This document shows, piece after piece, positions 23,560 through 60,787 of a stretch of DNA of 64,000 nt (position 1 is the first letter of the stretch; each line of letters begins with the position of its first letter). The translations under genes were made by a program, and so were the position numbers. The notes under the pieces were generated by a model, which saw only the letters and a program-made list of their open reading frames with translations, was not told where the DNA came from and did no database searches. The stretch is from Oscillospiraceae bacterium (GTDB lineage: Bacteria; Bacillota; Clostridia; Oscillospirales; Oscillospiraceae): contig DAOUQJ010000004.1 of NCBI GenBank assembly GCA_030625685.1, positions 7,028 through 71,027 on the forward strand. Direction: 5' to 3'.

Positions 23560-24009
23560 TTATTTTTTATTGCTGCGCTTTTTCTTACGTTCTTGGGCTT
23601 CTTGATGTAGACGAATTTCTTCTTCTGTTTCAGGAACGAACTCTGGAACGCGTTGTGGTGTTCCGTTTCTTCCCATTGCAACCATGGTAAAATAAGCAGA
23701 TAGCGCTTTTTGCGCTCCGTTATGAGACTCTAAGTCTTCCATTTCTACATTTACGAAAATCTCCATAGAGGTTTTGCCGACGTATCCAACTGTAGCAGTA
23801 CATGTGACGAGAGCCCCCACAAAGATAGGAAGAATAAATTCAAGTTCATCCACCCTTGCTGTAACACAATTGCTTTTGGAATATTTGATAGCCACGGCAC
23901 CTGCTGCGGCGTCCATCAGTTTCATAATCTCACCACCATGCACATTTCCGGCAACGTTGGCTTGGTGAGGTAGCATTACTTGGCTCATAATGATTTTTCT
24001 ATTAACCAT
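23560..24009 (-). CDS. Acyl-CoA thioesterase (hotdog fold, YciA-like)
   Basis: LPHQANVAGNVHGGEIMKLMD motif. I place the start at ATG 24009 behind AAAGGAGG rather than at the ORF-track start. Confidence 0.8.
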   Translation of the reverse strand: MVNRKIIMSQVMLPHQANVAGNVHGGEIMKLMDAAAGAVAIKYSKSNCVTARVDELEFILPIFVGALVTCTATVGYVGKTSMEIFVNVEMEDLESHNGAQKALSAYFTMVAMGRNGTPQRVPEFVPETEEEIRLHQEAQERKKKRSNKK

Positions 24010-24183
24010 ATGAAAGAACCTCCTTTGGTGTTTTATCTCTTTATTTATTCTATTATAATGCATGAGAGGCTTTGCGTCAAAAGTAAATTTGCTATTTCTC
24101 CCATTTTCCTTCTATTGACAAAGTTAAAATATACGATATACAATATTCTATTATATTCTACTACAAGGGAGTCTATCCGATTC

Positions 24184-25740
24184 ATGAAAAAACACAACTT
24201 CATTGCTATATTACTACTCGTAACACTCAACATACAAACCTGCACCTTATCAGGACTTGCAATCAATTCCTCTACCTTTTCTGATGCAAGCAGCATTGCA
24301 TCTTGGGCAAAAAATGATGTAGATGAAGCCTATGATCTCGGCTTTGTGCAAGGATACAACGGCGCATTTCACCCAGATGCCCCCATCACAAGAAGTGCTT
24401 TCACCAAACTACTTGTCACGATGCTGGGTTTGACTCCAGAAAAACACTATGAATCTATATTTTCTGATGTATCAAAGCAAGATTGGTTTACCCCATATGT
24501 CCTCACAGCTTATGAATATGGACTCATCACGGGGTCTGGTGGTGCATTTCACCCAAACAATAATATTACAAGAGAAGAAATGGCTGTCATCATAGCACGC
24601 GCGTTTCCCCTTTCTCAGTCTTCTCACATGTCGTTTTCAGACCGTTTCACAATCTCATCTTGGGCAACAGACAGTGTCGCATCGGTGTATCATAATGGAA
24701 TCATCACAGGCTACGACGGAAAATTCCATCCCAAAGACACTGCCACTCGTCAAATGGCAACTGTCATATTAATGCGTGCCTATCGTCAAAAGCTTGCTTT
24801 CCAATCGGCAGTTTCATCTGCAATCTGCCAAACAGGCCAGCATCTACTCAGCGCATCCCCTACCCCAAATACTGGCACTGTAGGAGGCGAATGGCTCATA
24901 TTTGGACTAGCGCGCAGTAACGTTGCTATGCCAAAAACATACGCTGATTCTTACATCAGCAAAGCAGAAACATACATTGTTTCCGAACACAACAAACCCA
25001 CACGCAAATTCGGTCACAAAGTCACAGATACTCAACGCCTTGCCATCACTTTGGCTTCTTTGGGCGCTGATATTGAAAATGTAAACGGTATAGACCTTGT
25101 CGATTACACTTGGAACAAAGAAACCTACATGTCTGATTTGATAGAAAGTCAGCGAGAACTTGGCGGAAGACAAGGTCTCAATGAACTCTGCTTTGGTCTT
25201 CTCACCATAGACCTACTGCCAAGCTACACCCCAAGTGGTGCGCAAATCACACGACAAGAAATCATCAAAACCATACTGCAAGACTATCAGCTTTCCTCTG
25301 GCGGTTTTAGTTTGAGCAAAGATAACAAAACTTTTGACCTTGATATCACCGCCATGACCATCACAGCGCTTGCTCCCTATTACAATAGAGCGAGCTATGA
25401 TAATGTCACCAAAGCCATTGACAAAGCACTCACAGTCATTTCGAGCAAGCAAAATGATGATGGTGGCTTTGGCAATCCGAGCAATGTAGAGTCAACCGCG
25501 CAAGTTGTGGTTGCTCTTTGTTCCCTTGGAATTGACCCCACCATAGACACACGTTTTAAACAAGATACCAATCTCATTTCACATGTGCTGTCCTTCCAAG
25601 ACCAAAACGATAGTTTTTCACACACATTGAACGGTGCAACAAGCCAAATGGCCACAGAACAAGCCTTTTATGCGCTTGTGTCTTATGAGCGACTCATTAC
25701 AAACCAAGTGCCACTTTATGATATGTCTGATGTTAATTAA
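24184..25740 (+). CDS. Secreted protein with three SLH repeats and a prenyltransferase/terpene-cyclase-like alpha/alpha-toroid domain
   Basis: The start MKKHNFIAILLL is a signal peptide. SLH repeats include FSD..SWA...GYNGAFHP...ITR. The C-terminal half has repeated GG(E/F) blocks (SSGGFSLS, NDDGGFGNPSNVESTAQ) typical of the squalene-oxidase repeat. Confidence 0.65.
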   Translation: MKKHNFIAILLLVTLNIQTCTLSGLAINSSTFSDASSIASWAKNDVDEAYDLGFVQGYNGAFHPDAPITRSAFTKLLVTMLGLTPEKHYESIFSDVSKQDWFTPYVLTAYEYGLITGSGGAFHPNNNITREEMAVIIARAFPLSQSSHMSFSDRFTISSWATDSVASVYHNGIITGYDGKFHPKDTATRQMATVILMRAYRQKLAFQSAVSSAICQTGQHLLSASPTPNTGTVGGEWLIFGLARSNVAMPKTYADSYISKAETYIVSEHNKPTRKFGHKVTDTQRLAITLASLGADIENVNGIDLVDYTWNKETYMSDLIESQRELGGRQGLNELCFGLLTIDLLPSYTPSGAQITRQEIIKTILQDYQLSSGGFSLSKDNKTFDLDITAMTITALAPYYNRASYDNVTKAIDKALTVISSKQNDDGGFGNPSNVESTAQVVVALCSLGIDPTIDTRFKQDTNLISHVLSFQDQNDSFSHTLNGATSQMATEQAFYALVSYERLITNQVPLYDMSDVN

Positions 25741-25751
25741 GAAGGTGACTT

Positions 25752-26306
25752 ATGCGTAAAAATTGTTTTCTCATCCTTTTATCCTTTGTCTTTTTCTTCA
25801 CTGGATGTTCAGCTCAACCAAGTGAAACTCCTGACTCTGCCACGGAACCTAACACTTCGCAAACTGAGCTGCAGCAATCGGAAGTTGACGCACAAACCAT
25901 TCTAGTTTCACTCGAAATCAGTTGCCACACTGTGCTCCCACAATTGGATGTTCTGCCAGAAGCAAAGCGCCAGCTCATCCCTAGTGATGGCATACTCTTC
26001 CCTATGACTACTCTGGAAGCGACAACTGGCGAATCGGCACATGATTTGCTGCTTCGCACAGTGCGAGAAGAGGGCATCCATATGGAATTTTCCACTTCAC
26101 CTTTTTATCAAACCACTTACATTGAGGGCATAGGCAATCTCTATGAATTTGATATGGGAGAACTGAGTGGATGGATGTATAAAGTCAATGATACCTTCCC
26201 CAATTACGGCATATCCAACTATATACTACAAGATGGTGATACACTCTCCTTGCTGTACACCTGCAATCTAGGAGAAGACATCGGCGGAGATAATTTCTCC
26301 GAATAG
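25752..26306 (+). CDS. DUF4430-like lipoprotein (transcobalamin beta-domain-like)
   Basis: Lipobox FFTGC. C-terminal GWMYKVNDTFPNYGISNYILQDGDTLSLLY matches my recollection of the DUF4430 signature. Confidence 0.65.
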   Translation: MRKNCFLILLSFVFFFTGCSAQPSETPDSATEPNTSQTELQQSEVDAQTILVSLEISCHTVLPQLDVLPEAKRQLIPSDGILFPMTTLEATTGESAHDLLLRTVREEGIHMEFSTSPFYQTTYIEGIGNLYEFDMGELSGWMYKVNDTFPNYGISNYILQDGDTLSLLYTCNLGEDIGGDNFSE

Positions 26307-26325
26307 CATCAAGAAAGGACCGTGC

Positions 26326-27213
26326 ATGACACATTTCAGCCACTATCACCCCGTCACAAATTTTGTTTTTTTTGCCTTGGTTATTGGACATGCCATGGTC
26401 ATTTTTCATCCTGTATATATGGTAATTTCACTACTTGCTAGTTTTCTCTTCAACTGGATAACCAATGGACAAAAAGGGCTCAAATTTGTCCTGACCTTTT
26501 GTCTGCCTGCTTGGATACTCATTGCTCTTTTCAATCCACTTTTTAGTCACGCAGGGATGACTATTTTATTTTATTTTCCCAATGGCAACCCATTCACCTT
26601 AGAAAGCGTCATTTATGGTGTTGTCACAAGCACCATGTTTATCACCGTCATCTTATGGTTTGCCTCATCCAACACCATTATGACCGGAGACAAACTCATG
26701 CATCTCTTTGGGAGAATCATACCCAAAAGCTCTCTCATCATTTCCATGGTTTTGCGCTTTGTGCCCCTGTATAAACAGCGCATCCGTCTTATCGCCCAGG
26801 GTCAAGCTGCCCTGCATGACGCAAACCAGAAACGAAACCTTCTCACCAAAGCCAAAGATGGTATTCAAATTCTATCCATTATGACCACTTGGTCTTTGCA
26901 AAGCAGTATAGAAACCGCAAACAGTATGAAAGCCAGAGGCTATGGCCTATCTGCTCGCACCGCCTATACCCAATATCGGTTTACATCAAGTGACAGAAAA
27001 ATCCTCATCATTCTCCTATCTTGCGCTTTGTTTATTATCGCTTTGCAATTACTCAAAGTCGTGCAATATTCTTACTATCCTTATATCTCATATACTACTA
27101 TTTCATCAATCAATATGCTTGGATACTTCACCTATGCACTCATGTGCTTTTTGCCTTGTATATTAAGTCTATGGAGGGAATTTAAATGGACATATTCCAT
27201 ATCGAAAATCTAA
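26326..27213 (+). CDS. ECF transporter transmembrane (T) component
   Basis: Polytopic protein with a C-terminal ARG..L-type coupling motif (MKARGYGL), positioned upstream of the ATPase. Confidence 0.8.
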   Translation: MTHFSHYHPVTNFVFFALVIGHAMVIFHPVYMVISLLASFLFNWITNGQKGLKFVLTFCLPAWILIALFNPLFSHAGMTILFYFPNGNPFTLESVIYGVVTSTMFITVILWFASSNTIMTGDKLMHLFGRIIPKSSLIISMVLRFVPLYKQRIRLIAQGQAALHDANQKRNLLTKAKDGIQILSIMTTWSLQSSIETANSMKARGYGLSARTAYTQYRFTSSDRKILIILLSCALFIIALQLLKVVQYSYYPYISYTTISSINMLGYFTYALMCFLPCILSLWREFKWTYSISKI

Positions 27214-28811
27214 ATTTTACATACCCTCTCTTGGAACAAAAGGCGCTTCAAGACGTCAGTTTCACAGTGAAAAAAGGTGAGTTTTTAACAATCTTTGGCC
27301 CGAGTGGTTGTGGCAAAACAACGCTCATTTCTCACCTCAAGCCCTCACTCACACCCCATGGCAGCAAAGACGGAACCATCTTATTTAATGGCATCCCCAT
27401 TGACAGCTTAGATATGCGCACTGAAGCTGCGAAAATCGGCTATATTTTTCAGCACCCAGACGAACAAATCGTAACCGACAAAGTTTGGCATGAAATCGCC
27501 TTTGGCCTTGAAAACCTAGGGAAGCCACAAGACTATATCCGCCGCAGTGTCTCTGAAATGGCAAGTTATTTGGATATTGGGCATCTCTTTCATCGCAATG
27601 TTTCTTCTTTAAGTGGTGGTGAAAAACAGCTCCTCAATTTGGCTAGTGTCCTCGCGATGCATCCGGATGTCATCATCCTAGACGAACCCACAAGCCAACT
27701 TGACCCCATTCATGCCACGCAGTTTTTGGATGTCATTGCGAAACTCAATCGCGACTTGGGCATCACCATCATCATGATTGACCATCGCTTAGAAGATATT
27801 TTACCCATGAGCGACCGCGCACTATTGTTGGAAGACGGTAAAATTGGCTGTCTCAGCTCCCCGAAAGACGTTTGTCTTCATCTGGCAAATACCAAGCACA
27901 GCTTACTCAAATCTGTTCCCTCTGGCATTCAAATTTTTGCTGAAATCAATCCAGAGCACATGCCTCTCACAACAGGCAAAGCACGTTTGCAGTTAGAAGA
28001 AGTGTTTTGCAATCCACATCCCCAAGCAGTCACATTTCCCTCTCCAAATAAGCATGAGGATACTCACATTGTTCTTAAAGCCAAAAACCTCTCATTCCGA
28101 TATCAAAAGCATGGCGCAGATATTTTAAAACACTTAACTATGCAAATTCCACGTGGCTCTTTCTACACCATTTTAGGCGCAAATGGTGCTGGGAAATCAA
28201 CGCTACTGTCTCTCATCGCAAAAGTAAACAAACCGTATACAGGGAAACTTACGGTGCATGGCTCAGTTGCGACACTTCCACAAAATCCACAAAGTCTTTT
28301 TCTCAAGCAAACTGTGTGGGATGATTTGCATACCGTTTGTCAAGATGATGAAAAAATCCGTACTCTTGCACAAAAAACAAACATAGAGACAATATTTGAG
28401 CATCATCCCTATGATATCAGTGGCGGTCAAATGCAACTGGTAGCCCTAACAAAGGTACTACTCACTGACCCTGAAATCTTGCTTTTAGATGAACCAACCA
28501 AAGGCTTGGATGCTGAGAGCAAACTGCGATTGGCGAACATTCTCAAGTCACTGATTGAACAAGGCGTCACTGTCATTGTCGTTTCCCATGATGTGGAATT
28601 TTGCGCACAGCATGCCCAGATGTGTGCGATGATGTTTGATGGTTCTTTGATCAGTGAAGCCGACACGCGAAGCTTTTTCTCAAGCAACTATGTTTACACA
28701 ACATCTGCTAACAAAATTGCAAGAACAATACAACCCAATGCCATCACAGTGGAGGATGTTTTAACGCTATGGAACAACTATCAGCAAAACGCAGAAACCT
28801 TATCTTATTAA
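27186..28811 (+). CDS. Fused duplicated ECF/ABC ATPase (EcfA-EcfA')
   Basis: Two Walker A motifs (GPSGCGKTT, GANGAGKST), two signatures (LSGGEKQ, ISGGQMQ) and two Walker B motifs (ILDEPT, LLDEPT). Confidence 0.85.
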   Translation: MDIFHIENLNFTYPLLEQKALQDVSFTVKKGEFLTIFGPSGCGKTTLISHLKPSLTPHGSKDGTILFNGIPIDSLDMRTEAAKIGYIFQHPDEQIVTDKVWHEIAFGLENLGKPQDYIRRSVSEMASYLDIGHLFHRNVSSLSGGEKQLLNLASVLAMHPDVIILDEPTSQLDPIHATQFLDVIAKLNRDLGITIIMIDHRLEDILPMSDRALLLEDGKIGCLSSPKDVCLHLANTKHSLLKSVPSGIQIFAEINPEHMPLTTGKARLQLEEVFCNPHPQAVTFPSPNKHEDTHIVLKAKNLSFRYQKHGADILKHLTMQIPRGSFYTILGANGAGKSTLLSLIAKVNKPYTGKLTVHGSVATLPQNPQSLFLKQTVWDDLHTVCQDDEKIRTLAQKTNIETIFEHHPYDISGGQMQLVALTKVLLTDPEILLLDEPTKGLDAESKLRLANILKSLIEQGVTVIVVSHDVEFCAQHAQMCAMMFDGSLISEADTRSFFSSNYVYTTSANKIARTIQPNAITVEDVLTLWNNYQQNAETLSY

Positions 28812-29491
28812 TTTGCATGCTCCTCATTCCTACAATCTTAATATTTGCACATTTTTACTTGGACGAAGCACGCTACTACCTCACAAGTTCCCTTGTCGTC
28901 TTACTGAGCCTAATCCCATTCATCCTTCTCTTTGAGAGAAGACAAGCCCAAGCTAAAGAAATTGTTTTAATTTCTGTCATCTGCGCCATTGCTGTAGCAG
29001 GTCGCACTGCATTTTATATGCTCCCTCAATTCAAACCTCTCGTCGCTATTGTCATTATCGCAGGGGTTTGCCTTGGCAGTGAATCTGGTTTTATGGTTGG
29101 TGCCATCTCTGCTTTTGTGTCCAATTTTTTTGTAGGACAAGGCCCATGGACACCATATCAAATGCTCGCTCTTGCGATAATTGGCGCCTTAGCTGGTTTT
29201 CTCTTTTCCCGCAAGTTACTCAAACCCAAGCTTTTTAATTTATGTGTGTTTGGTTTTCTTTCTACCTATCTAATTTATGGGCTTATTTTAGATGCTCACT
29301 TCACCTTAGCCGCCTTTGGTACCATCACTTTAAAAAACTATGTTGTTGCCATCACCTCAGGTTTTTTTCCAAACCTGCTCCACAGCACAGCGAGCGTCTT
29401 ATTTTTACTGCTATTTGCTAAGCCCTTTATGAAACAAATAGACCGCATTACGATCAAATATGGACTAGTATTTGGCGAAAATGGTCACTAA
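28769..29491 (+). CDS. ECF transporter substrate-specific (S) component, substrate unknown
   Basis: About 6 TM helices in 240 aa, overlapping the ATPase gene. The gene order is typical for a dedicated ECF module. Confidence 0.6.
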   Translation: MEQLSAKRRNLILLICMLLIPTILIFAHFYLDEARYYLTSSLVVLLSLIPFILLFERRQAQAKEIVLISVICAIAVAGRTAFYMLPQFKPLVAIVIIAGVCLGSESGFMVGAISAFVSNFFVGQGPWTPYQMLALAIIGALAGFLFSRKLLKPKLFNLCVFGFLSTYLIYGLILDAHFTLAAFGTITLKNYVVAITSGFFPNLLHSTASVLFLLLFAKPFMKQIDRITIKYGLVFGENGH

Positions 29492-29504
29492 TACTGCTTT
29501 GCAC

Positions 29505-29531
29505 ATAACTGAGCTTGTATCTGCATACACT
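29505..29531 (+). promoter_or_regulatory. Candidate sigma-E-type (mother-cell) promoter upstream of spoIIID
   Basis: ATA (29505-29507), a 16-nt spacer, CATACACT (29524-29531). This fits the recalled sigma-E consensus ATA-N16/17-CATACAnT, and it ends 19 nt before the AAGGAG SD. Confidence 0.4.
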
Positions 29532-29566
29532 CTCTACATAATGCTACGCAAGGAGTGTTGCCGTTA

Positions 29567-29680
29567 GTGAGAGAAACAATAGAAGAACGTGCTTGTCAAT
29601 TGGCACTTTACATCATAGAAAACAATGCCACTGTCCGAAGTACAGCCACGCAATTTGGTATTTCAAAGTCAACTGTACAT
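29567..29680 (+). CDS. spoIIID: spoIIID 5' segment (codons 1 to ~38, HTH region); the gene is interrupted here
   Basis: (V)RETIEERACQLALYIIENNATVRSTATQFGISKSTVH parallels B. subtilis SpoIIID ...KERTIKIGKYIVETKKTVRVIAKEFGVSKSTVH. After H the similarity stops. The ORF-track 101-aa ORF reads on into unrelated sequence. Confidence 0.8.
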
Positions 29681-29681
29681 A
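29670..29681. repeat. Left junction (attL) core CAACTGTACATA, identical to 37391-37402
   Basis: A 12-bp direct repeat read at both junctions, with the presumed crossover CA at 29678-29679. Confidence 0.8.
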
Positions 29682-29711
29682 CAGTTGTCACAAAACAGAA
29701 CGTTTTACCTA

Positions 29712-29746
29712 ACGCTGAGACACTTCGTCTTAGCGTATTTTATTTT
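29712..29746 (+). terminator. Intrinsic terminator just inside the left end of the element
   Basis: 10-bp stem acgctgagac/gtcttagcgt (one G-T pair), followed by ATTTTATTTTA. Confidence 0.5.
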
Positions 29747-29801
29747 ATAAAACGCACAATCCATGCCAACCTTTTATTCTGTATTATCCTAGGAGAATTA
29801 T

Positions 29802-30473
29802 ATGAAACGACAAATTATCATCCCCAGTCTCATCGCTTGTACCATCTTATTTTTGATTGAACAATACTTACACGTTCCATTCATTGTCAAATCCATGATT
29901 AAACTGCCGACCTTTGCTATTTTGCCTCTTTGGTACATAAAAGCAATCAAAAAGGAGACCATAAAAAGGGCACTCAATTTACAGCATTTCAAACTTTCTG
30001 AAGTCAAACTAGGGTTACTTTTATCTGCTATCTTAGTGATTCTCATTCCCCTAGTCTACTTTACTGTTGCAACACCGTATATAGACACTGCTAAACTGAT
30101 TTCAGAGCTCAGCCTAATCGGCGTGACAAAGACTAACTTTCTCTTCGTATCACTATACATTGCCATCGTCAATTCATTTTTAGAAGAATTCTTCTTTAGA
30201 GGCTTCGTATTTTTGAACTTATATGAAACACATGCACGCTTTAGCATGGTCTTTTCTGCCCTTCTTTTTGCAACATATCATATTGGTATTTTTGTCTCTT
30301 GGTTTCAAATTTCTATGCTATTTCTGGCTCTGTTTTCTCTATTTATTGGTGGTCTTATCTTCAATTTTTTGGCAACTAAAAGCAAAAATTTTCTCAATTC
30401 GTGGCTTGTGCATTTCTTTGCTGACGCTGTCATCTTGGTCTTAGGCGGACTAATTTTGCATGAAATAATTTAA
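29802..30473 (+). CDS. CPBP-family (CAAX) intramembrane metalloprotease
   Basis: Polytopic protein with EEFFFRGF and a later FATYH / HFFAD pattern. Confidence 0.8.
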   Translation: MKRQIIIPSLIACTILFLIEQYLHVPFIVKSMIKLPTFAILPLWYIKAIKKETIKRALNLQHFKLSEVKLGLLLSAILVILIPLVYFTVATPYIDTAKLISELSLIGVTKTNFLFVSLYIAIVNSFLEEFFFRGFVFLNLYETHARFSMVFSALLFATYHIGIFVSWFQISMLFLALFSLFIGGLIFNFLATKSKNFLNSWLVHFFADAVILVLGGLILHEII

Positions 30474-30546
30474 CGCCAAAGCCTTGCTATTACTAGCTTT
30501 TTCATGTTTTTCACCTCTCTTTTTGCAAGAGTTTTGAAAAATTTTG

Positions 30547-30576
30547 TTGACAACGCAACTTGAATATGCGTATACT
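30547..30576 (+). promoter_or_regulatory. Candidate sigma-A promoter of the rib leader
   Basis: TTGACA (30547-30552), an 18-nt spacer, TATACT (30571-30576). Confidence 0.45.
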
Positions 30577-30596
30577 TTAAGCTAAGAATTGAATAC

Positions 30597-30731
30597 TGAT
30601 AATTTTCGGGATGGTGTGAAATTCACCACCGGCGGTAAAAGTCCGTGAGCGTTGCGTGTTTAAACTTGCAATTAGCTGATCTTGTGGAATTCAAGAACCG
30701 ACAGTATAGTCTGGATGGGAGAAAAATTGTC
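30597..30731 (+). promoter_or_regulatory. FMN riboswitch (RFN element)
   Basis: TTCGGGATGGTGTGAAATTCACCACCGGCGGTAAAAGTCCGTGAGC...GTGGAATTCAAGAACCGACAGTATAGTCTGGATGGGAGAA matches the RFN consensus blocks. P1 is AATTTTC/GAAAAATT. Confidence 0.85.
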
Positions 30732-30777
30732 ACATATGAAGTATGTAACTTTGTTTACATATGTCTTTTTGTGTTGT

Positions 30778-30808
30778 CCTGAAGAAATAACTTCAGGGCT
30801 TTTTTTAT
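30778..30808 (+). terminator. Riboswitch expression-platform terminator
   Basis: Stem cctgaag/cttcagg followed by GCTTTTTTT. Confidence 0.65.
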
Positions 30809-30828
30809 TTTGAAAGTGGGGTGATGAC

Positions 30829-31926
30829 TTGAATAATCATGAATTTTATATGCAAAAAGCATTAGAACTAGCCAAACAAGGCGAGGGACATGTGAATCCC
30901 AATCCTATGGTTGGCGCTGTCATAGTAAAAGATGGCGAAATCCTATCCACCGGTTATCACAAACAATTCGGAAAACGACACGCAGAACGAATCGCAATAG
31001 AAGATGCCCCGACAAGCGTCGAAGGTGCAACGCTGTATGTCACGTTAGAACCTTGCTGTCACGTAGGAAAAACACCCGCGTGCACCGACATCATTCTGCA
31101 AAGTGGAATCAAAACTGTGGTCGTCGCCATGCAAGACCCTAATACACTTGTCAGCGGAAAAGGCAATCAGATTTTGCGAGAACATGGCGTTGAAGTCATC
31201 GTAGGCGTGTTGGAACACGAAGCAAAGGCACTCAATGAAATTTTTTGCAAATTCATAACGAAAAGAAATCCCTTTGTTACCTACAAATACGCTATGACGC
31301 TAGACGGAAAAATTGCAACGCCCAACGGTGCTTCACAGTGGATTTCATCTGAAGCGTCACGCAACTATGTTCAGCATTTGCGCAACAAACACATGGCCAT
31401 CATGGTCGGCGTAAACACTGTCCTTTCTGACAACCCACGACTCAATCCTCGGATTCCAAATCCAAGCACTAGCATCAAAATCATTGTGGATAGCCTCGGA
31501 AAAACACCGCTAGACAGCAATATATTCACATCACCTGGTGAAGTCATCATTGCAGCAACCTATCAAATCGAACCGCAAACAGAAGAAGCGCTCATCCAGC
31601 ATGGTGCAACGGTAATCAAGACCACAGCAGTTGACGGTCAAGTCAATCTCGCTGAGCTTTTAGAGGCGCTTCATAAAAGACAAATTGACAGCATCTTATT
31701 GGAAGGCGGCAAGACCTTGGCAGGCAGTATGCTCACACTTGGTCTCATTGACAAAATTGAAGCGTTTGTCTGTCCTAAAATCATTGGTGAAGGACTCTCG
31801 CCTGTGGGTGGATTTTCCCTCACTGACATTGCAGACAGCATTTCATATTCCATCAAAGATGTAAAAACAATCGGTCAAGATGTGCTACTCACAGCGTATA
31901 AGGAGACACTATGTTTACAGGATTAA
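30829..31926 (+). CDS. ribD: Bifunctional diaminohydroxyphosphoribosylaminopyrimidine deaminase / 5-amino-6-(5-phosphoribosylamino)uracil reductase
   Basis: HAERIAI...TLEPCCHVGKTPAC deaminase zinc motif plus a reductase domain. Confidence 0.9.
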   Translation: MNNHEFYMQKALELAKQGEGHVNPNPMVGAVIVKDGEILSTGYHKQFGKRHAERIAIEDAPTSVEGATLYVTLEPCCHVGKTPACTDIILQSGIKTVVVAMQDPNTLVSGKGNQILREHGVEVIVGVLEHEAKALNEIFCKFITKRNPFVTYKYAMTLDGKIATPNGASQWISSEASRNYVQHLRNKHMAIMVGVNTVLSDNPRLNPRIPNPSTSIKIIVDSLGKTPLDSNIFTSPGEVIIAATYQIEPQTEEALIQHGATVIKTTAVDGQVNLAELLEALHKRQIDSILLEGGKTLAGSMLTLGLIDKIEAFVCPKIIGEGLSPVGGFSLTDIADSISYSIKDVKTIGQDVLLTAYKETLCLQD

Positions 31927-32546
31927 TCGAAGAAATTGGAACCGTTGAGCGCATCCAATCACATGGAACATCAAAACAGCTCAGCATCCATTGTGATAAA
32001 GTTCTCGATGCTGTCTCTATGGGAGATAGCATTGCAACCAATGGCGTATGCTTAACCGTTTCAGACTTTACAAAAAACGCTTTCACAGCAGATGTCATGG
32101 TAGAAACGGTCACCAAAACCAACTTATCTAGCATAAAGATTGGCGACAAAGTCAATTTAGAGAGAGCATTGCGTGTTGGTGACAGATTGGGCGGACATTT
32201 TGTTTCAGGTCACATTGATGGCACAGGCAAAATTCGTTCCGTTCGTAGACTGGAACACGACATTCTCATTAAGATTTCCTGTCCAGATGACCTACTTTCC
32301 TTTATTGTGGAAAAAGGCTCCATCGCTATTGACGGCATTAGCCTAACGGTTGCAAATCTCGGACGAGATTACTTCACCGTTTCCATCATTCCCACCACCA
32401 GCAGTGACACAACACTCACCTCAAGAAATGTAGGCGACGTTGTCAATTTGGAATGTGACATGATCGGAAAATACATTTATAAATTTACAAATCGTGATAC
32501 CCAAGGGGTCACGCTCGACTTACTCAAAGAAAACGGCTTTATTTAG
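31911..32546 (+). CDS. ribE: Riboflavin synthase alpha chain
   Basis: [10 protein letters not shown] start and a duplicated lumazine-binding repeat ([13 protein letters not shown] / [12 protein letters not shown]). Confidence 0.9.
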
Positions 32547-32557
32547 GAGGATTATCT

Positions 32558-33754
32558 ATGTTTGACACGATTGAACAAGCCATAGAAGACATCAAACAAG
32601 GCAAAATGATTGTCGTCGTTGACGATGAAGATAGAGAAAACGAAGGAGATCTTCTCATGGCTGCAGAAAAAGCCACCATGGAAAGCATCAACTTTATGGC
32701 AACTTACGGTCGTGGACTCATTTGTGTGCCCATGAAACGTGATCGCCTTGACAACCTTGGCATTGATCTTATGGTTAAAAATACGACTGACCCCAAAGAA
32801 ACTGCATTTACCATCAGCGTTGACTGCGTTACAAACTCCACTGGCATTTCAGCGCACGACAGAGCAGATACCATCGCTGCCCTTGTCAATGATGAGAGTA
32901 AAAAAACTGATTTTACTACCCCTGGTCATATCTTCCCTCTCATTAGTAAAGAAGGCGGTGTACTGAAACGCGCAGGTCATACTGAAGCTGCCACAGACTT
33001 TGCTACTCTTGCAGGTCTCAAACCAGCTGGCGTAATCTGTGAAATCATGAATGACGATGGCACGATGGCTAGAGTTCCTGACCTCATTAAATACAAAGAA
33101 AAGCACAACCTCACGTTTGTCACCATCAAAGATTTGATTGCTTATCGCAGAAAAACTGAAAAAATCATTCGCAGAGAAGCTGAAGTGCCAATGCCAACCA
33201 AATATGGCGAATTCAAAGCAGTAGGCTATGAAAACAAACTAGATGGCACTCATCATGTAGCACTAGTCAAAGGCGATATTTCCCCTGATGAACCTGTTTT
33301 GGTACGTGTACACTCCGAATGCCTAACGGGTGACGTATTCGGCTCACTACGTTGCGACTGTGGTGAACAGTTTGCTGCTGCCATGAACGCCATTGAAAAA
33401 GAAGGTAAAGGCATTTTACTTTATCTAAGACAAGAAGGCCGCGGCATTGGTCTTATCAATAAACTCAAAGCCTATCATCTGCAAGACCAAGGTATGGACA
33501 CTGCAGAGGCCAATCTTGCCCTCGGTTTTCCCGCTGAAATGCGTGAGTATGGTGTTGGGGCTGAAATCTTATCGGATTTGGGTGCAAACAAAATTCGTCT
33601 TCTCACAAACAATCCTAAGAAAATCAGTGGGCTGTCTGGATACGGCATTGAAATTGTAGAACGTGTTCCCATTGATATGGGTTATCACGAAGAAAACTAT
33701 CACTATTTGAAGACAAAGAAAAATAAAATGGGTCACATCTTAGACATCAACTAA
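32558..33754 (+). CDS. ribBA: Bifunctional 3,4-dihydroxy-2-butanone-4-phosphate synthase / GTP cyclohydrolase II
   Basis: [11 protein letters not shown] (DHBP synthase) and [18 protein letters not shown] (GCH II) motifs. Confidence 0.9.
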
Positions 33755-33769
33755 TAAGGAGAATTAATC

Positions 33770-34231
33770 ATGAAAAAATTTGAAGGATTATTACATTCCA
33801 CAGGCAAAAAATATGGCATTGTTGTTGGACGTTTCAACGATTTCATTGGCAGCAAACTGTTAGATGGCGCGATTGATGCTCTCACTCGTCACGGCGTTGA
33901 CCGCTCTGAAATCGAAATCGCCTATGTTCCTGGCGCTTTTGAAATCCCACTTGTGGCGCAAAAAATGGCGCAAAGCGATACGTATCATGCCGTCATCTGT
34001 TTGGGTGCAGTCATCAAAGGCAGCACACCACACTTTGACTACGTATCCAGTGAAGTGACAAAAGGCATTGCGCAAGTTTCTCTACAAACTGGCAAACCAG
34101 TTATCTTTGGCGTTCTCACCACTGATTCTATTGAGCAAGCAATTGAACGTGCAGGCACAAAATCTGGAAACAAAGGCTTTGAAGCTGCAGTCACTGCCAT
34201 TGAAATGGTCAATTTGTTGGAAAGCATTTAA
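33770..34231 (+). CDS. ribH: 6,7-dimethyl-8-ribityllumazine synthase
   Basis: [11 protein letters not shown] and VPGAFEIPL motifs. Confidence 0.9.
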
Positions 34232-34270
34232 CCTTGTCACATTATTAAAATTTCCTCCCCTATATATTCA

Positions 34271-34309
34271 AAAAACACCTCTTCAAGATGAAGAGGTGTT
34301 TTCTTTTTC
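34271..34309. terminator. Bidirectional terminator between ribH and the HD-domain gene
   Basis: Stem acacctcttc/gaagaggtgt flanked by A and T runs. Confidence 0.65.
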
Positions 34310-34321
34310 ATTATTCATTGG

Positions 34322-34807
34322 TTATGCCGGTACATGTGCTGGTCTATACTTGCTTCTCACGAAGAATCTAAGACGTCCAAAGTATTCTGCGATGGCAAGA
34401 CCTTTGTCAACAAAGCTGACCACAAAGGCTTCTCTCGTCTTTGGCAATCCCATTGGGAACATGTGACCTGTAATGATATTTCGTTCTTTGGCATTGAGCT
34501 CAAAGTGTTGTAGTGCATTTTGTAGTGCAATTTTAGGATGGTTTTTTGTGTGACAAAACGCGTCTTTCAACAAACTTAATCCACTGGTTTTTTTGAATTT
34601 ATACAAGTAAAAATCATGTAAGAGGCATCCTCTTGTGATAGCCACATGATCCAATTTTAGCTTCTTGGCAATTTTATAAGAAACATATGCTGTTCCCAAA
34701 CAGTGATCAAACACAGTACCATGGTGGTGCGGAATGTTTCGCATTTCTAAATATGCTTCATGCGTAATGATAGGTCTGGCAATTTGGTAAAACTCTTTTT
34801 TATGCAT
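34322..34807 (-). CDS. HD-domain phosphohydrolase
   Basis: The H...HD pattern (HHHGTVFDHCL, LLHD) in a 161-aa protein. Confidence 0.65.
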   Translation of the reverse strand: MHKKEFYQIARPIITHEAYLEMRNIPHHHGTVFDHCLGTAYVSYKIAKKLKLDHVAITRGCLLHDFYLYKFKKTSGLSLLKDAFCHTKNHPKIALQNALQHFELNAKERNIITGHMFPMGLPKTREAFVVSFVDKGLAIAEYFGRLRFFVRSKYRPAHVPA

Positions 34808-35031
34808 GAGCTGGCATTACCCCTTTCAGAAATCATTGCAACTATCCTGCTAATCATATTGTATCACATTTACTGTGCTTTGCAAGTCATTTATAAAGGT
34901 AATACAGCAATAAAACACCCCACATTTTGTCATAATATACAAATTGAACGGGGTGTTTTCTCAATTTTTCAATATATTTTCACAAATGAGAATATATGTG
35001 TTATATTGAATGTATGAAAAAATGAAGATAC

Positions 35032-35463
35032 TTAGTCTAGTTTATATTCAAAACAGTATGCGCATTTATGGAAACCATACTTTTCATAAAATTTATGCGC
35101 ACCTTCTCTTGGCAAACCAGTGTCAAGAATCATGGCATGACAACCATGTTCAGTTGCAATGGTTTTTGTATGGTTCATAAGGGCAGTGCCATAGCCTTTT
35201 GTTCTTTGATCTTCATTTGTGATAATACTTGCAATATAACAAGTTTTTCCAGACATCCAAAATGTATTGAAAAAGGAACCATGACAAAATCCAACTGGTT
35301 TTCCGTCATCATACAAGAAGAACGCAAAGTCATTCTCGTTTTTAAGCACTTCTTTGTAAACCTTTTCAATCACTGCGCGATCGTATGTGTTATACGTCCA
35401 AAGTTTTTCGATATAATCAAAAGCCAAATCAAAATCATCCATAGTTGCATTTTTAATTTCCAT
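35032..35463 (-). CDS. GNAT-family N-acetyltransferase
   Basis: QRTKGYGTALMNH (the R/QxxGxG/A acetyl-CoA motif). Confidence 0.8.
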   Translation of the reverse strand: MEIKNATMDDFDLAFDYIEKLWTYNTYDRAVIEKVYKEVLKNENDFAFFLYDDGKPVGFCHGSFFNTFWMSGKTCYIASIITNEDQRTKGYGTALMNHTKTIATEHGCHAMILDTGLPREGAHKFYEKYGFHKCAYCFEYKLD

Positions 35464-35640
35464 GATTAATTCCCCTTATTGTAAAAATTCTACAATAGAT
35501 TATATCACACAATTTCCATATTGCAAGCTTGTATTCCTTTGTTTTTTCGTGATAATGACCAATTCATCGCTTCACAATCAATCATTGGTATGTTGCTCTT
35601 CCCTTCTGCATAGAAATGAAAGAGAAAGGATGGACAAGCC

Positions 35641-35811
35641 ATGTGTACAGAAAAACAAAACTTGCAAATACGTTTTCATAACCCCAATCCGCAAGGGGAT
35701 TTTGAACGACATCTATGTCATTTACTTGCAAAGGAGCTGAGCATTATTTCAGCTACGCAAGTTAATGTGCTCGAACATCCCCCCTATTCCCATCAAAAAC
35801 AACCTAAATGA
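35641..35811 (+). CDS. Small ORF (56 aa) upstream of the recombinase gene; candidate accessory or directionality factor
   Basis: Below the ORF-track cutoff. MCTEKQNLQIRFHNPNPQGDFERHLCHLLAKELS... AGGA lies about 10 nt upstream. I recognise no homology. Confidence 0.3.
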   Translation: MCTEKQNLQIRFHNPNPQGDFERHLCHLLAKELSIISATQVNVLEHPPYSHQKQPK

Positions 35812-35877
35812 TTACGAGCAAGGCTAATTGCCTTGCTCGCTTAGCTATATCCCAATTTTTGAAAGCAGGTGATCACA

Positions 35878-37371
35878 ATGCAGGCAGTTGCCTACTGTCG
35901 CGTATCCACAAACAAAGAGGAACAAATAGATAGTCTTCAAGCACAACAAGAGTTTTTTACAGAATATGCAAAAAGGCACAATCACGAACTCATCGAAATC
36001 TATGCTGATGAAGGCAAAAGTGGGACCAAAATGAAACACAGGGTCGCTCTCATTCAAATGTTATGCGATGCTGAGCGAGGTGAGTTTCAAATGGTTCTCA
36101 TTAAAGACGTTTCCAGACTTGCTAGAAATACCGTTGATTTTTTAACAAGCATTCGCAAACTCAAATCTGCAGGAATAGAAGTCATCTTTGTCAATTATGA
36201 TATGACAACATCAGACTCCAGTGAGTTTATGCTCACCATGCTCTCTGCCATCGCACAAGAAGAGAGCTCTAACACCTCAAAGAGAATAAAATTTGGTAAA
36301 AAAATAAATGCAGAAAAGGGACGCATTCCAAATTTATGTTATGGGTATGAAAAAACAAAGGGCGATTACTTTCAGCTTGCAATAAACCCCGAAGAGGCCG
36401 CCATTATACAAAACATCTTTCATATGTATATTCATGAAGGCTTGGGGTCAAGTCGCATTGCCAAACAGCTCAACGCACAAGGCGCTCTCACCAAACGACT
36501 GCTACCTTTTAGTCAGCATAGCATTTCTCGCATCCTCACAAATGAAATCTACATAGGAAAAGTTGTCAATGGCAAAGAGTGTATTGAAGATTTTCTAACT
36601 GGAAAGCGCCTTTCCCAGCCTGAAGATGCTTGGTCTATCACGTGCAATGAATCTCTTCGCATTATAGATGATGAAACCTTTTTCAAAGCGCAACGAGTCA
36701 TGAAAGATCGTCAAAATACCTTTCATCAAACTGGTGAAAAGAAAAGCTCTAAACACCCATTTTCCAAAGTCATTTACTGTGCATGTTGTGGATACGCATA
36801 CCGTCAAATCGTGCGAAAGTATAAACGCACCTATGTGCGCTGGTGTTGTAGTGGGCGCAATACGAAAGGCACAGACTTTTGCCATAACACGGTAAATCTT
36901 GACGAGCAATTTCTGCTGAGCACAATCAAATCAAAGCTACTCGAAATGCTACAATCTCAGCAAAATGCCTTGTTTCTCATCAAAACTGAATATCAAAAGT
37001 GTATGAAGACTACCAAACGTGATGCTACCAATATACTCACATTAAAAAAAGAGCGTGACCTTTTTAAACACCACATGCGAAAATACAAAGAAATGTTCAA
37101 AGCAAATATCATTGAACTAAACGAACTTCAACTGGAAACGACTAGACTCCAAGACAAAATTGATGTTTTGGATTGTCGCATAGCAAATCATGCCACCTGT
37201 AGCAAACCACCTTTGCTTTCTCTGCTCGATCATACTAGTGCTTGTGATGGGTTAGAAAGCATTCTGACTCTAATGCCCTTTTCGAATCAATTCATTTGTG
37301 AACTTGTAGAAAATATCACCGTAGATCATGACGGTGCTGTTTGCATCAATTTCAAGCAACTCAAACACTAA
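35878..37371 (+). CDS. Large serine recombinase (resolvase/invertase catalytic domain, recombinase domain and zinc ribbon)
   Basis: MQAVAYCRVSTNKEEQ (catalytic Ser), DVSRLARN, AQEESSNTSKRIKFG, and Cys-rich CACCGYAY...WCCSG. The stop is about 20 bp from the right att core. I prefer ATG 35878 to the upstream GTG. Confidence 0.9.
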   Translation: MQAVAYCRVSTNKEEQIDSLQAQQEFFTEYAKRHNHELIEIYADEGKSGTKMKHRVALIQMLCDAERGEFQMVLIKDVSRLARNTVDFLTSIRKLKSAGIEVIFVNYDMTTSDSSEFMLTMLSAIAQEESSNTSKRIKFGKKINAEKGRIPNLCYGYEKTKGDYFQLAINPEEAAIIQNIFHMYIHEGLGSSRIAKQLNAQGALTKRLLPFSQHSISRILTNEIYIGKVVNGKECIEDFLTGKRLSQPEDAWSITCNESLRIIDDETFFKAQRVMKDRQNTFHQTGEKKSSKHPFSKVIYCACCGYAYRQIVRKYKRTYVRWCCSGRNTKGTDFCHNTVNLDEQFLLSTIKSKLLEMLQSQQNALFLIKTEYQKCMKTTKRDATNILTLKKERDLFKHHMRKYKEMFKANIIELNELQLETTRLQDKIDVLDCRIANHATCSKPPLLSLLDHTSACDGLESILTLMPFSNQFICELVENITVDHDGAVCINFKQLKH

Positions 37372-37390
37372 AAACCGTTCTATTATATGA

Positions 37391-37402
37391 CAACTGTACA
37401 TA
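37391..37402. repeat. Right junction (attR) core CAACTGTACATA
   Basis: Identical to 29670-29681. Confidence 0.8.
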
Positions 37403-37548
37403 AAGACTTATCAGAACGTCTGCCTTCATTTAACCAGCCTTTGTACATGCAAGCCAAGCGTGTATTAGAGCAAAACAAAGCAGAACGCCATATTAGAGGC
37501 GGAATTGCCACTCGCAATAAGTATAAAAGTAATTGTGTTGAATCATAG
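37401..37548 (+). CDS. spoIIID: spoIIID 3' segment (about 48 codons plus stop)
   Basis: Not in the ORF track because it has no start codon. In frame with the 5' segment it reads (STVH)KDLSERLPSFNQPLYMQAKRVLEQNKAERHIRGGIATRNKYK. Compare B. subtilis STVHKDLTERLPEINPDLANEVKEILDYHKSIRGHLGGKATKLKYK. Confidence 0.8.
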
Positions 37549-44076: not shown

Positions 44077-44553
44077 TTACACCCCCAATTCGTGCAAAAT
44101 GTTATAAATGGTGTCTTTGATTGCCTTAGCCGCTGTTTTGGGCGCTGTTTTCCCCGGAAGTCCTGGCAGTCTTTGTGCATTGAGCCCCAATCGTGCGGCT
44201 GCATCCATATCAACCCCGCCTGGGTCAGATGCCAAATCAATGATAAATGCATCCATCTGCACTCGTTCGAGATGCACTTCATCAAGAATAAGCGCAGGCA
44301 CTGTATTGATGATGAGCTCATACCCACCCATCCAATACAGTAGTTGTCTACTGTCTTCCACACCATATCCATATGCTTCTGCCCATGCCCAATCTTCACA
44401 CTTTCGAGAAGCTACCGTTACTCTTGCACCTAAGTTTTGAAGACGATGCGCCGTGAGTTTCCCCACTCTACCATAGCCAATCACTAGTGCTTTAGTGCCA
44501 TGCAAGGTAGAAGGCATATTTCGCATGGCAACCTGTATAGCACCTTCTGCAGT
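44077..44553 (-). CDS. dpaA: dpaA (spoVFA) 3' segment (about 158 codons, Rossmann domain)
   Basis: The reading frame is open up to the junction: ...PT-AEGAIQVAMRNMPSTLHGTKALVIGYGRVGKLTAHRLQNLGARV. Compare B. subtilis DpaA IPTVEGTIMLAIQHTDYTIHGSQVAVLGLGRTGMTIA. There is no start codon or SD at its 5' end. Confidence 0.8.
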   Translation of the reverse strand, partial: TAEGAIQVAMRNMPSTLHGTKALVIGYGRVGKLTAHRLQNLGARVTVASRKCEDWAWAEAYGYGVEDSRQLLYWMGGYELIINTVPALILDEVHLERVQMDAFIIDLASDPGGVDMDAAARLGLNAQRLPGLPGKTAPKTAAKAIKDTIYNILHELGV

Positions 44554-44558
44554 AGGTA
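44552..44558. repeat. dpaA junction core GTAGGTA (partner GTCGGTA at 60789-60795)
   Basis: The two copies are offset by exactly 16,237 bp, and the reading frames of the two gene halves coincide at this offset. Confidence 0.65.
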
Positions 44559-44682
44559 GGGGGTTGTCAATAGTGCAATATAGGTTTGCATTTTACCTTA
44601 TATAAATCTTTAAAATATATGTTTAAAATTCAAACTGCTAATTCTCTTAAAATCTTATCCTATAAACAAAGCTTTTATAAAA

Positions 44683-52654: not shown

Positions 52655-52757
52655 GAAAATCCGATAACAGCAAACTTGCCGAAAGGCAAGGACGCAAAGC
52701 CAAGGGTCTAATGCTGAGCAGCAATCTGCAAGGCTATGACAGCCGGTTGCCGAAGGT
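52655..52757 (+). promoter_or_regulatory. c-di-GMP-I (GEMM-I) riboswitch
   Basis: AACAGCAAACTTGCCGAAAGGCAAGGACGCAAAGCCAAGGGTCTAA...GACAGCCGGTTGCCGAAGG matches Vc2-type blocks: GCAAAC, a GAAA tetraloop, GGACGCAAAGCC, and GGTTaCCGAtGG. Confidence 0.85.
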
Positions 52758-56982: not shown

Positions 56983-57455
56983 AATACTATCCCCTTTCAT
57001 CTACTTTGATGTACGAAACATCATTTTCTTTACAACGTTCCTGTCAATGCGCTCGTCTTGATTTTCTGCTGATAAAATGATCTATCCACAACCCTTACCC
57101 TAACCATTGTACTGTTTTTGTATATCTTAATTAATTGTTTTAGACTTCCATAAAATTCATTACATTTTTGTTTATTTTGCATATTTATAACTAGATTTTT
57201 TTATATTTTTTGTCTATTTTATTTTGTTATTATACCATGCATGAATTATTTGTCAAATTATTTATCAAAAATTGGATAAATTAATTTATGTATATATGTA
57301 AGACCTAAAAAAAACTACTTTAGACTCAATAGAAAAGATTGAACCCTCTGTTTTTTCTTAAATTTTAAATACCAAGACGCTTTTTTTCTACCTTTCTCGC
57401 TTCATCTATGTTAATTTACGATAAAATCAAACGCAATACTCTGTTATATACTTCC

Positions 57456-60310: not shown

Positions 60311-60787
60311 AACTCCTTATACGACATACGGGTAAATGCCAATGAACCTCTTTTCACTCTCTTTGTGTTGTAACTGTTTCCCAAACTATTTTAATTCAAA
60401 CCTTAAAATAATTGCACACAAACAAAGCACATTTGTAAGATTGAGAACTTTCCTTAGAATTTTTCAGAAATGTACCCATTATATCTTAAAATGTAGGATC
60501 AGAAATATTATAGCATATAAACAACATAAAACAACATATTTTGGAATATTCATGCAAAAATTATAGCATTTTTTTCAAAATATCATTCTATACTACCATA
60601 TTTTCTCTTTCTAAAAAATCTGATATCTCACTGTTAATCAGAAGAATCGCCTTTTTCTTTTCAATTCCCTTCACAAATTTAAAAGGGCTTGGTTTAGATT
60701 TTTGAAAAGCCTAATGATTTGATGTATCTTCATCCTTCTATCGAAATTGACTTTTTACACACACTTAAATAGACACTTGGATAACAA

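Follow-up and report, generated by a model that had tools for sequence, protein, structure and literature searches.

Why should a complete set of riboflavin biosynthesis genes, with its own riboswitch, lie between the two halves of a sporulation regulator gene and beside a recombinase gene? The question is raised by a 64,000-nt stretch of DNA of an Oscillospiraceae bacterium (assembly GCA_030625685.1, contig DAOUQJ010000004.1, positions 7,028 to 71,027 of the forward strand), which is called the window hereafter. In the window, spoIIID is interrupted after codon 42 by a 7,721-bp element containing the genes ribD, ribE, ribBA and ribH, some accessory genes and a gene encoding a large serine recombinase (LSR). 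The segment is probably a domesticated, vertically inherited spoIIID-intervening element which carries the rib operon as passenger cargo; we infer its excision, the mother-cell specificity of this excision and the participation of a directionality factor.

Ends of the element and the split spoIIID gene

The element extends from 29682 to 37402, and its exact boundary is ambiguous within a 12-bp core. The spoIIID 5' half (29555..29681, plus strand) contains codons 1-42, whose translation ends in GISKSTVH, and the 3' half (37402..37548, plus strand) contains codons 43-90, starting with KDLSERLP. The core, CAACTGTACATA, is a 12-bp direct repeat found at attL (29670..29681) and attR (37391..37402), and both copies are spanned by contigs from two independent sequencing runs. 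Excising the 7,721 bp, including one copy of the repeat, gives a 90-aa spoIIID open reading frame (ORF), and the joined product passes as a SpoIIID equivalog (TIGR02844 spore_III_D, 115.9 bits against a cut-off of 111.5). The terminal arms of the element are 34-nt inverted repeats, and the deduced attP, which is the junction of the circle, is a near-palindrome, GACAACTGTA-CA-TACAGTTGTC, centred on CA. In both attP arms the motif GAACG begins at +19, and in the attB' arm it begins at +14; the B arm shows GAA at +14. Solved LSR-DNA complexes show the outer motif about 5 bp farther from the centre in attP than in attB half-sites, and the 5-bp offset between the deduced sites matches the geometry expected of LSR sites. 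The LSR gene ends 31 nt from the right end of the element. The locus shows, then, what characterises an intervening element: an interruption of a mother-cell sporulation gene whose removal restores the frame, att sites with a shared core and a recombinase gene at the edge. The original prediction, made from the sequence without database searches, had placed att sites at both ends of a spoIIID-splitting element, and the 12-bp repeats lie at or near the positions it had named.

A sigma-E-type promoter candidate for spoIIID, ACATAAC-14 nt-CATACACT, is located at 29503..29531 (plus strand). It is a consensus match only, with 8/8 positions of the -10 element, and it is the sole strict match in the interval searched (29.4-37.7 kb, with the pattern KMATATT-N13-15-CATACAHT). 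Immediately within the left end of the element there is a terminator-like hairpin followed by a T-run (29712..29736, plus strand), which would end truncated spoIIID transcripts.

The junctions and the conservation of the locus were examined in two metagenomes, both of them available as assembled contigs, which drop rare forms. X1 is a cold-seep metagenome run containing 99% of the sampled words of the window, and its independent (Logan) assembly was used for the junction check. This assembly spans attL in a contig of 21,226 nt and attR in one of 18,491 nt, at an even depth of ~16, and breaks only inside the gene encoding a GNAT acetyltransferase, because of a second copy of this gene which is ~92% identical. 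X2 is a sediment metagenome from a separate study, with short contigs of low depth, and is the basis of the sister-lineage evidence. In X2, contigs run across each of the two junctions and extend over the CPBP, rib, HD, GNAT, small-protein and LSR genes described below, and they belong to a lineage ~6% diverged which shows the same cargo at the same site. Summed over the aligned pieces of X1 and X2, the flanks differ in 177/2932 nt (6.0%) and the rib genes in 125/1939 nt (6.4%); the divergence is 7.8% in the CPBP gene (44/567 nt), 2.9% in the HD gene (14/489 nt) and 9.5% in the LSR gene (85/892 nt). The same site in a lineage ~6% diverged, with a rib divergence like that of the flanks, argues for vertical inheritance: most likely, the common ancestor already had the element with its rib operon, and both have descended vertically from it.

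The fragment between 29520 and 29710, which includes the spoIIID 5' half, attL and the P' arm, does not show any difference between X1 and X2, and the part of the sigma-E-type promoter candidate that could be compared (29520-29531) is therefore also identical. In the 3' half, the five resolvable differences (5/5) are synonymous, third-position changes. This constraint is unlike that of a dead gene and indicates that the split spoIIID is functional and under purifying selection, in which case its halves must be rejoined at some point.

The riboflavin operon and the accessory genes

The genes of the element were assigned with Pfam, NCBIfam equivalogs, PHROGs and PADLOC, and its RNAs with Rfam. 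Nearest to the left end is a gene encoding a protein of the CPBP (Rce1-like) intramembrane protease family (29802..30473; Pfam PF02517, 51.4 bits), followed on the same plus strand by the rib operon. The operon starts with a sigma-70-like promoter candidate, TTGACA-18-TATACT, which agrees with the consensus at 11/12 positions (30547..30576), a flavin mononucleotide (FMN) riboswitch aptamer (30598..30730; Rfam RF00050, full length 1-138, 106 bits against a gathering threshold of 66) and the attenuator terminator of the riboswitch, with a 9-bp stem and a T-run (30776..30799). It contains four genes: ribD, encoding a deaminase/reductase (30829..31926; TIGR00326, 352 bits, cut-off 156); ribE, encoding riboflavin synthase (31911..32546; NF006767, 242 bits, cut-off 155); ribBA, encoding 3,4-dihydroxy-2-butanone 4-phosphate (DHBP) synthase / GTP cyclohydrolase II (32558..33754; NF006803, 646 bits, cut-off 569); and ribH, encoding lumazine synthase (33770..34231; TIGR00114, 191.5 bits, cut-off 84.6). 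Each of the four exceeds at least one NCBIfam equivalog cut-off, and the aptamer, the terminator and the four equivalog genes make this a complete riboflavin operon under FMN-riboswitch control. A bidirectional terminator with a 14-bp stem (34272..34302) is located between ribH and a gene encoding an HD-domain phosphohydrolase of 161 aa (34322..34807, minus strand; Pfam HD, 34 bits), and beyond the latter is the GNAT acetyltransferase gene (35032..35463, minus strand; Pfam Acetyltransf_1, 77 bits).

The inventory given in the original prediction (CPBP protease, promoter, RFN element, ribD-ribE-ribBA-ribH, HD hydrolase, GNAT and recombinase genes) is thus recovered by Pfam, Rfam and NCBIfam at or near the positions it had named. 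Its view that capsid, replication, transfer and toxin genes are absent agrees with Pfam, PHROGs and PADLOC, which found no phage, replication, relaxase, secretion, transfer, toxin or defence family in the element; they match only the integrase and an acetyltransferase, apart from generic PHROGs matches to the rib enzymes. A prophage or phage remnant was rejected, as PHROGs and Pfam show no capsid, portal, terminase, tail, lysis or phage replication gene, and so was a conjugative or mobilisable element, since relaxase, coupling protein and type IV secretion genes are absent in the Pfam scan. The small ORF that the prediction placed before the recombinase gene has to be corrected: the 92-aa ORF (35462-35740) is spurious, being frameshifted and stopped in the X2 lineage, and the real small gene is the overlapping one encoding 56 aa (35641-35811), which is conserved in the family.

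A RibT-like role for the GNAT protein in the rib operon was considered and rejected, because its gene is on the opposite strand, its matches are generic GNAT ones and there is no RibT among its PDB relatives. The second GNAT copy in the source metagenome, which corresponds to window positions 35119-35293, has an equal depth (~17); it could be a paralogue within the same genome or stem from a strain that co-occurs with it. The HD gene is the least diverged part of the element between X1 and X2, and no PDB relative of its product was found. Among the 80 loci in reference genomes with the closest RibBA proteins, an HD homologue near RibBA was found in only one (36% identity, L005:6309-6722, 1.5 kb from its ribD), which is the reference genome with the closest RibBA. 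To our knowledge, the dephosphorylation of the pyrimidine intermediate of riboflavin synthesis is a step without an assigned enzyme in many bacteria. A link between the HD gene and riboflavin is conceivable, one locus of 80 being insufficient to claim it.

In base composition the rib genes resemble the host. Their GC content is 42-45% and their GC content at third codon positions (GC3) is 0.38-0.42, compared with a mean of 0.375 (standard deviation 0.043) in the 40 core genes used as reference, and their codon-usage log-likelihood is within one standard deviation of the same genes. The third-position GC skew of the rib genes on the plus strand (-0.33 to -0.57) equals that of the flanking plus-strand genes (-0.27 to -0.53), and the overall shift of GC skew across the element was for this reason discarded as a sign of foreign origin. 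The composition of the LSR gene is equally host-like, and the only compositional deviant inside the element is the GNAT gene (GC3 0.29). In contrast, the neighbouring region at 44.9-52.3 kb is clearly foreign, with 26-33% GC. The GC and codon-usage comparison bears out the impression that the segment looks like the surrounding chromosome, with GNAT as the sole exception, and the idea of a minimal or domesticated non-phage element agrees with this composition and with the same cargo and junctions in the ~6% diverged lineage.

Relatives of the recombinase, source of the operon and a second split gene

The recombinase gene (35878..37371, plus strand) encodes a protein of 497 aa with the Pfam domains PF00239 (Resolvase), PF07508 (Recombinase) and PF13408 (Zn_ribbon_recom), each above the Pfam cut-off, as is expected of an LSR. 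The protein matches the integrase family phrog_95 of PHROGs with 358 bits, and R8 and S10, at the catalytic site, do not vary across the family alignment. It was not assigned as an equivalog of SpoIVCA, XisF or Ccr, its best scores against curated NCBIfam models being far under the cut-offs (CcrB, 136 against 900; XisF, 118.7 against 375), and its closest database proteins outside its own lineage show at most 55% identity. The 56-aa protein, with the motif L.I.FHNPN followed by an amphipathic helix, is encoded on the plus strand directly upstream of the LSR gene, and small proteins of this kind (42-60 aa) occupy the same position in nearly all members of the family. Its ORF remains open in X2. 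No match was found in Pfam, PHROGs or PADLOC, and it does not show homology to known directionality factors. Serine integrases need a directionality factor for recombination between attL and attR, and the FHNPN protein is the best candidate for this function.

The recombinase family was defined as 84 loci with LSR relatives 39-55% identical, plus the window, and 65 of them have enough flanking sequence to be judged. A spoIIID fragment lies beside the LSR gene in 61 of these 65 loci, which marks the clade as one dedicated to spoIIID. In 43 of the 61, the 3' half of spoIIID is at most 400 nt downstream of the LSR gene, as in the window, and the remainder show other orientations. The split point of the gene always falls between KST(V/I)H and KD, and the element-side att arms share a common AACCGTTC/GAACGGTT motif. 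Many members come from gut, sludge, sediment and termite Clostridia, cultured strains included. This LSR clade is absent from IMG/VR (2.9 million viral contigs), whose best match reaches 34% identity. The best match to the LSR in a 'phage' database is MT838016, with 39% identity. This 6.4-kb record (MT838016.1, 'Bacteriophage sp.', locus L168) was considered as an excised circle and rejected, since it lacks a terminal overlap and is a chromosomal fragment; it is a virome record, not a phage, showing two PPK2-like genes (recognised by eye), an LSR gene, the spoIIID 3' half and then chromosomal genes.

The cargo of the sister elements is varied. One element of ~3.5 kb (L103) contains an NCS2 purine-type permease gene, a small gene and the LSR gene; an element of ~6.3 kb (L152) contains DUF3990, CorA and NCS2 permease genes; and one of ~7.1 kb (L154) contains a binding-protein ATP-binding cassette (ABC) transporter. 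The element of Anaerocolumna sedimenticola (L194, CP048000.1), of ~12 kb, contains DUF3791/3990, CorA, two NCS2 permease, GntR, ABC transporter and PocR-HD genes. Two others could not be bounded: that of Acetanaerobacterium elongatum (L195), with a type I restriction-modification system, and that of the virome record, with the PPK2-like genes. An element of ~9.2 kb (L115) contains a Mob_Pre relaxase, a TraG/VirD4-like coupling protein, a small resolvase and helix-turn-helix (HTH) regulators. Homologues of the rib, CPBP, HD and GNAT genes are present in none of the 83 sister loci checked, and among the family elements seen only that of the window has a biosynthetic pathway as cargo. Relatives had also been proposed as a place where the same 7.7-kb segment might appear as an obviously mobile unit; no relative carries it in such a form, and the mobilisation genes of L115 (relaxase and coupling protein) accompany a different cargo. 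The LSR clade accordingly spans a range from mobilisable elements to fixed ones loaded with transporter or metabolic genes, with the element of the window at the domesticated end. Upstream of the LSR gene, locus L004 (1-9173) shows rhamnose/polysaccharide genes (RgpF, MBOAT and enzymes of deoxythymidine diphosphate (dTDP)-sugars), and locus L002 (1-9890) shows nucleotidyltransferase, amidoligase, Schlafen-AlbA and HTH genes; no spoIIID 5' half was found in either stretch. If these stretches lie entirely inside elements, some members of the family exceed 10 kb and carry cell-envelope pathways.

The neighbours of spoIIID and of the rib operon point in different directions. The fakA gene, which adjoins spoIIID, has its closest relatives (66-68% identical) on metagenome contigs and its named relatives (61-64%) in Evtepia, Intestinimonas, Flavonifractor and Pseudoflavonifractor, which points to Oscillospiraceae-like hosts. 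Two loci show the backbone of the window (asnA, DUF1846, 4HBT, asp23, fakA, spoIIID): L165, with an intact spoIIID match (85 aa), ABC-2 transporter genes beyond it and no rib genes nearby, and L170, with an uninterrupted spoIIID junction at the contig end and likewise no rib genes nearby. As both share the backbone and show no rib there, the rib operon is not an ancestral neighbour of spoIIID. The closest RibBA is 85% identical and lies on a 2.9-kb contig (L169), and the next ~120 relatives are 69-73% identical. The named ones, of Tissierellales, Peptostreptococcales or Clostridium type, come from Sporosalibacterium, Tepidibacter, Thermosediminibacterales, Senegalia, Clostridium, Natranaerovirga and Proteinivorax; none of the top 120 matches bears an Oscillospiraceae name, about a quarter of the database proteins being named. 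In reference genomes the best RibBA match is 71% identical, and the 80 loci examined there show a plain ribD-E-BA-H unit, none of them with spoIIID, LSR, CPBP or GNAT genes as neighbours. These relationships hint at an old horizontal acquisition of the rib operon, which later took on a host-like composition, RibBA being so conserved a protein that the signal is weak. The suggestion that a recombinase had captured chromosomal DNA, with rib normally beside spoIIID, is not supported, given the two loci without rib nearby and the 80 RibBA loci, none of which is near spoIIID.

Directly upstream of spoIIID, on the plus strand (23980-29491), there is an energy-coupling factor (ECF) transporter cluster with genes encoding an SLH/prenyltransferase-like protein, a DUF4430 protein, a T component, a fused double ATPase and an S component. 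The idea that this last component is a riboflavin importer is not supported; it reaches 23 bits against the 99 required of a RibU equivalog and gives a weak match to the riboflavin S-component Pfam family (34.7 bits).

The window contains a second split sporulation gene. The dpaA/spoVFA gene is present as two parts on the minus strand (44077-44575 and 60755-61177), with 44.58-60.75 kb between them; the C-terminal part is directly upstream of dpaB, and the N-terminal part (Pfam DpaA_N, 84.8 bits) is ~16.2 kb away. L170, with the same backbone, shows an intact dpaA of 288 aa. Since dpaA is split here and intact there, the genome contains at least two intervening elements, ~7 kb apart. The region between the dpaA parts has a low-GC (26-33%) core with a thymidylate-kinase-like gene and two more LSR genes (46779-48377, minus strand, and 50705-52333, plus strand), which are inverted and 73% complementary over 710 nt. 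It also contains a cyclic di-GMP-I riboswitch (52659-52754, plus strand, 74.7 bits) upstream of a gene encoding a secreted CAP-domain protein with 39-nt tandem repeats (52908-53669, plus strand), a gene encoding a 1058-aa protein with C-terminal S-layer-homology-like repeats recognised by eye (53824-57000, minus strand) and a gene encoding an 892-aa PAS-GGDEF-HD-GYP protein (57632-60310, minus strand). The riboswitch and the CAP-domain, 1058-aa and 892-aa genes are host-like signalling and surface cargo of this second element.

Readings of the locus among known intervening elements

Intervening elements are known in sigK, gerE, spoVFB, spoVR, spsM and yabG, which are late or structural genes. 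The skin elements range from 2.6 to 48 kb, vary widely in size and cargo and share only the recombinase gene (bioRxiv 10.1101/2022.02.25.481979). No description of a spoIIID-splitting element, or of an intervening element with a vitamin pathway, was found in the literature searched. The element of the window resembles skin in sigK (SpoIVCA in Bacillus subtilis; CD1231, with the directionality factor CD1234, in Clostridioides difficile) in being an LSR element which splits a mother-cell regulator gene; it differs in its target, spoIIID, which acts upstream of sigma-K, in its cargo of a whole vitamin pathway and in its recombinase, which forms a separate clade without a curated family. In C. difficile, excision of skin is controlled by a small directionality factor (PMC5025042), and in B. 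subtilis SpoIIID is needed for spoIVCA expression (PMC6957869). Since SpoIIID is required there for the skin recombinase, excision of the spoIIID element must be SpoIIID-independent and triggered earlier and in another way. The gin element in gerE of Bacillus cereus ATCC 10987 is likewise small, not a prophage and located in the gene of a small helix-turn-helix sporulation regulator (PMC5595907), but its target gene and recombinase lineage are different, and in the window metabolic and accessory cargo makes up ~5.5 kb of the element. SPbeta in spsM (SprA/SprB), vfbin in spoVFB and yin in yabG also reconstitute genes by LSR-mediated recombination linked to sporulation (PMC4191935, PMC10747680); these are prophages or their remnants, whereas the element of the window lacks phage genes and has an LSR whose clade does not occur in IMG/VR. 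By analogy, the spoIIID element would work like skin and gin.

Among full-length LSRs of solved structure, SprA of SPbeta is the closest (9dxh, E = 3e-11). Homologues of ribBA are also found on plasmid records, such as a 35-kb plasmid of Priestia megaterium (63% identity), which are replicons and not excisable elements within a gene, and almost never on phage records (13 weak matches). In the heterocyst elements of Anabaena, such as the fdxN element with XisF, a serine recombinase excises unrelated cargo during development, in cells that differentiate terminally. Among the NCBIfam models, XisF ranks second for the LSR; these elements differ in phylum, developmental programme and target gene.

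In a vertically inherited intervening element, spoIIID would be interrupted in vegetative cells and in the forespore, and transcripts of its 5' half would be halted by the terminator at the left end, while the rib operon would be transcribed in vegetative cells from a promoter of its own, controlled by FMN. After activation of sigma-E in the mother cell, the LSR and the 56-aa protein would recombine attL with attR, the trigger acting without SpoIIID, and excision would yield a 7.7-kb circle and the 90-aa spoIIID frame behind the sigma-E-type promoter. The forespore would retain the integrated copy, and the element would be inherited. The CPBP, rib, HD and GNAT genes would be passenger cargo, in line with a habit of the family of acquiring and keeping useful genes of host type. 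The left att site lies 865 bp before the rib promoter and the right one more than 3 kb beyond ribH, and the excised circle would thus retain the promoter, the riboswitch and all four rib genes. As the mother cell neither divides nor replicates further, the placement of rib on a non-replicating circle would not have an obvious physiological effect. The coupling of vitamin metabolism to a developmental rearrangement proposed in the original prediction therefore holds as a formal consequence of excision, and its physiological side is unsupported: the circle keeps the operon intact, the mother cell is terminal and the cargo of the sister elements is unrelated. More plausibly, useful cargo makes it costly to lose the element from the germ line, and the need to sporulate preserves the recombination machinery.

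Several other explanations were weighed. An assembly chimera of unrelated pieces might be suspected in a metagenome-derived window whose Logan assembly breaks inside the GNAT gene, but the second GNAT copy accounts for this break, the independent X1 assembly crosses both junctions at even depth and contigs of the unrelated X2 run cross them too, which leaves this explanation hardly credible. That the rib genes cannot be told from the flanks by composition, codon usage or GC3 strand skew would suit an operon that was the ancestral neighbour of spoIIID and was later enclosed by the recombinase and the att sites. A serine integrase, however, inserts a closed circle, and whatever lies between attL and attR must have arrived with that circle or entered later, which counts against local capture; given also L165, where spoIIID is beside fakA with ABC-2 transporter genes on the opposite side, and the lack of spoIIID near any of the 80 closest RibBA loci, such a capture is very improbable. 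The helix-turn-helix stretch of spoIIID might, alternatively, be just a safe attachment site without a developmental role, in a host which is asporogenous or has another intact spoIIID. The relaxase and TraG/VirD4-like protein of L115, the intact spoIIID beside the interrupted copy in L152 and the failure to find a sporulation promoter for the LSR gene speak for it. It is nevertheless improbable, since the split gene is under apparent purifying selection in both halves, the compared part of its sigma-E-type promoter is unchanged in X2, the element lacks transfer genes and has diverged together with its flanks, as in vertical descent, and the window has another split sporulation gene, dpaA, as in known sporulation-specific rearrangements.

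A further explanation is mutual entrenchment, in which rib would be the only riboflavin pathway of the genome, horizontally acquired on the element. Growth of the host would then depend on the cargo and its sporulation on the recombinase; selection would act against germ lines that lose the element, for instance by vegetative excision, and the cargo would be kept. The contrast between the non-Oscillospiraceae names of the RibBA relatives (~70-73% identical) and the Oscillospiraceae-like fakA is in its favour, together with the complete and regulated operon, its retention in a second lineage at flank-like divergence and a neighbouring ECF S component that is not a RibU equivalog (23 against 99 bits). 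An identity of 70-73% across orders is, however, a weak phylogenetic signal in so conserved a protein, only about a quarter of the database proteins are named and the host-like composition means that any transfer is old, so that this explanation is judged unlikely. A broader proposal would make the LSR clade and the FHNPN protein a widespread, undescribed class of germ-line-only cargo platforms in Clostridia, placed in the gene of the first mother-cell transcription factor, with the lineage's only, horizontally acquired riboflavin pathway on board, early elimination from the mother-cell chromosome independent of SpoIIID and mutual dependence of host and element; it is doubtful, and if true it would give bacteria a counterpart of programmed DNA elimination.

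The reading as a vertically inherited intervening element that is excised in the mother cell remains the preferred one, and the following observations weigh against it. No attB or attP excision junction was found among the assembled contigs of X1 and X2, which lose rare forms. No sigma-E-type promoter with the strict consensus was found upstream of the small gene or the LSR gene. The FHNPN protein is a candidate directionality factor by its position and conservation only, and 11/56 of its residues differ between the X1 and X2 lineages. The last 15 codons of spoIIID contain two further X1-X2 differences which are not resolvable. Finally, L152 shows an intact spoIIID (4062-4307) and, 1.2 kb downstream, a second copy (5520-5651 and 11914-12042) split by the ~6.3-kb element; as such paralogues coexist there, a second intact spoIIID is possible in the genome of the window.

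With these reservations, the spoIIID element would add a checkpoint at the DNA level near the top of the mother-cell cascade, and the FHNPN protein offers a concrete candidate for a directionality factor. A spoIIID gene split in this way is easily miscalled as missing or as a pseudogene in annotation. The small spoIIID-splitting elements with varied cargo are a widespread and apparently undescribed family, whose members grade by their cargo from mobile elements into fixed loci of the host.

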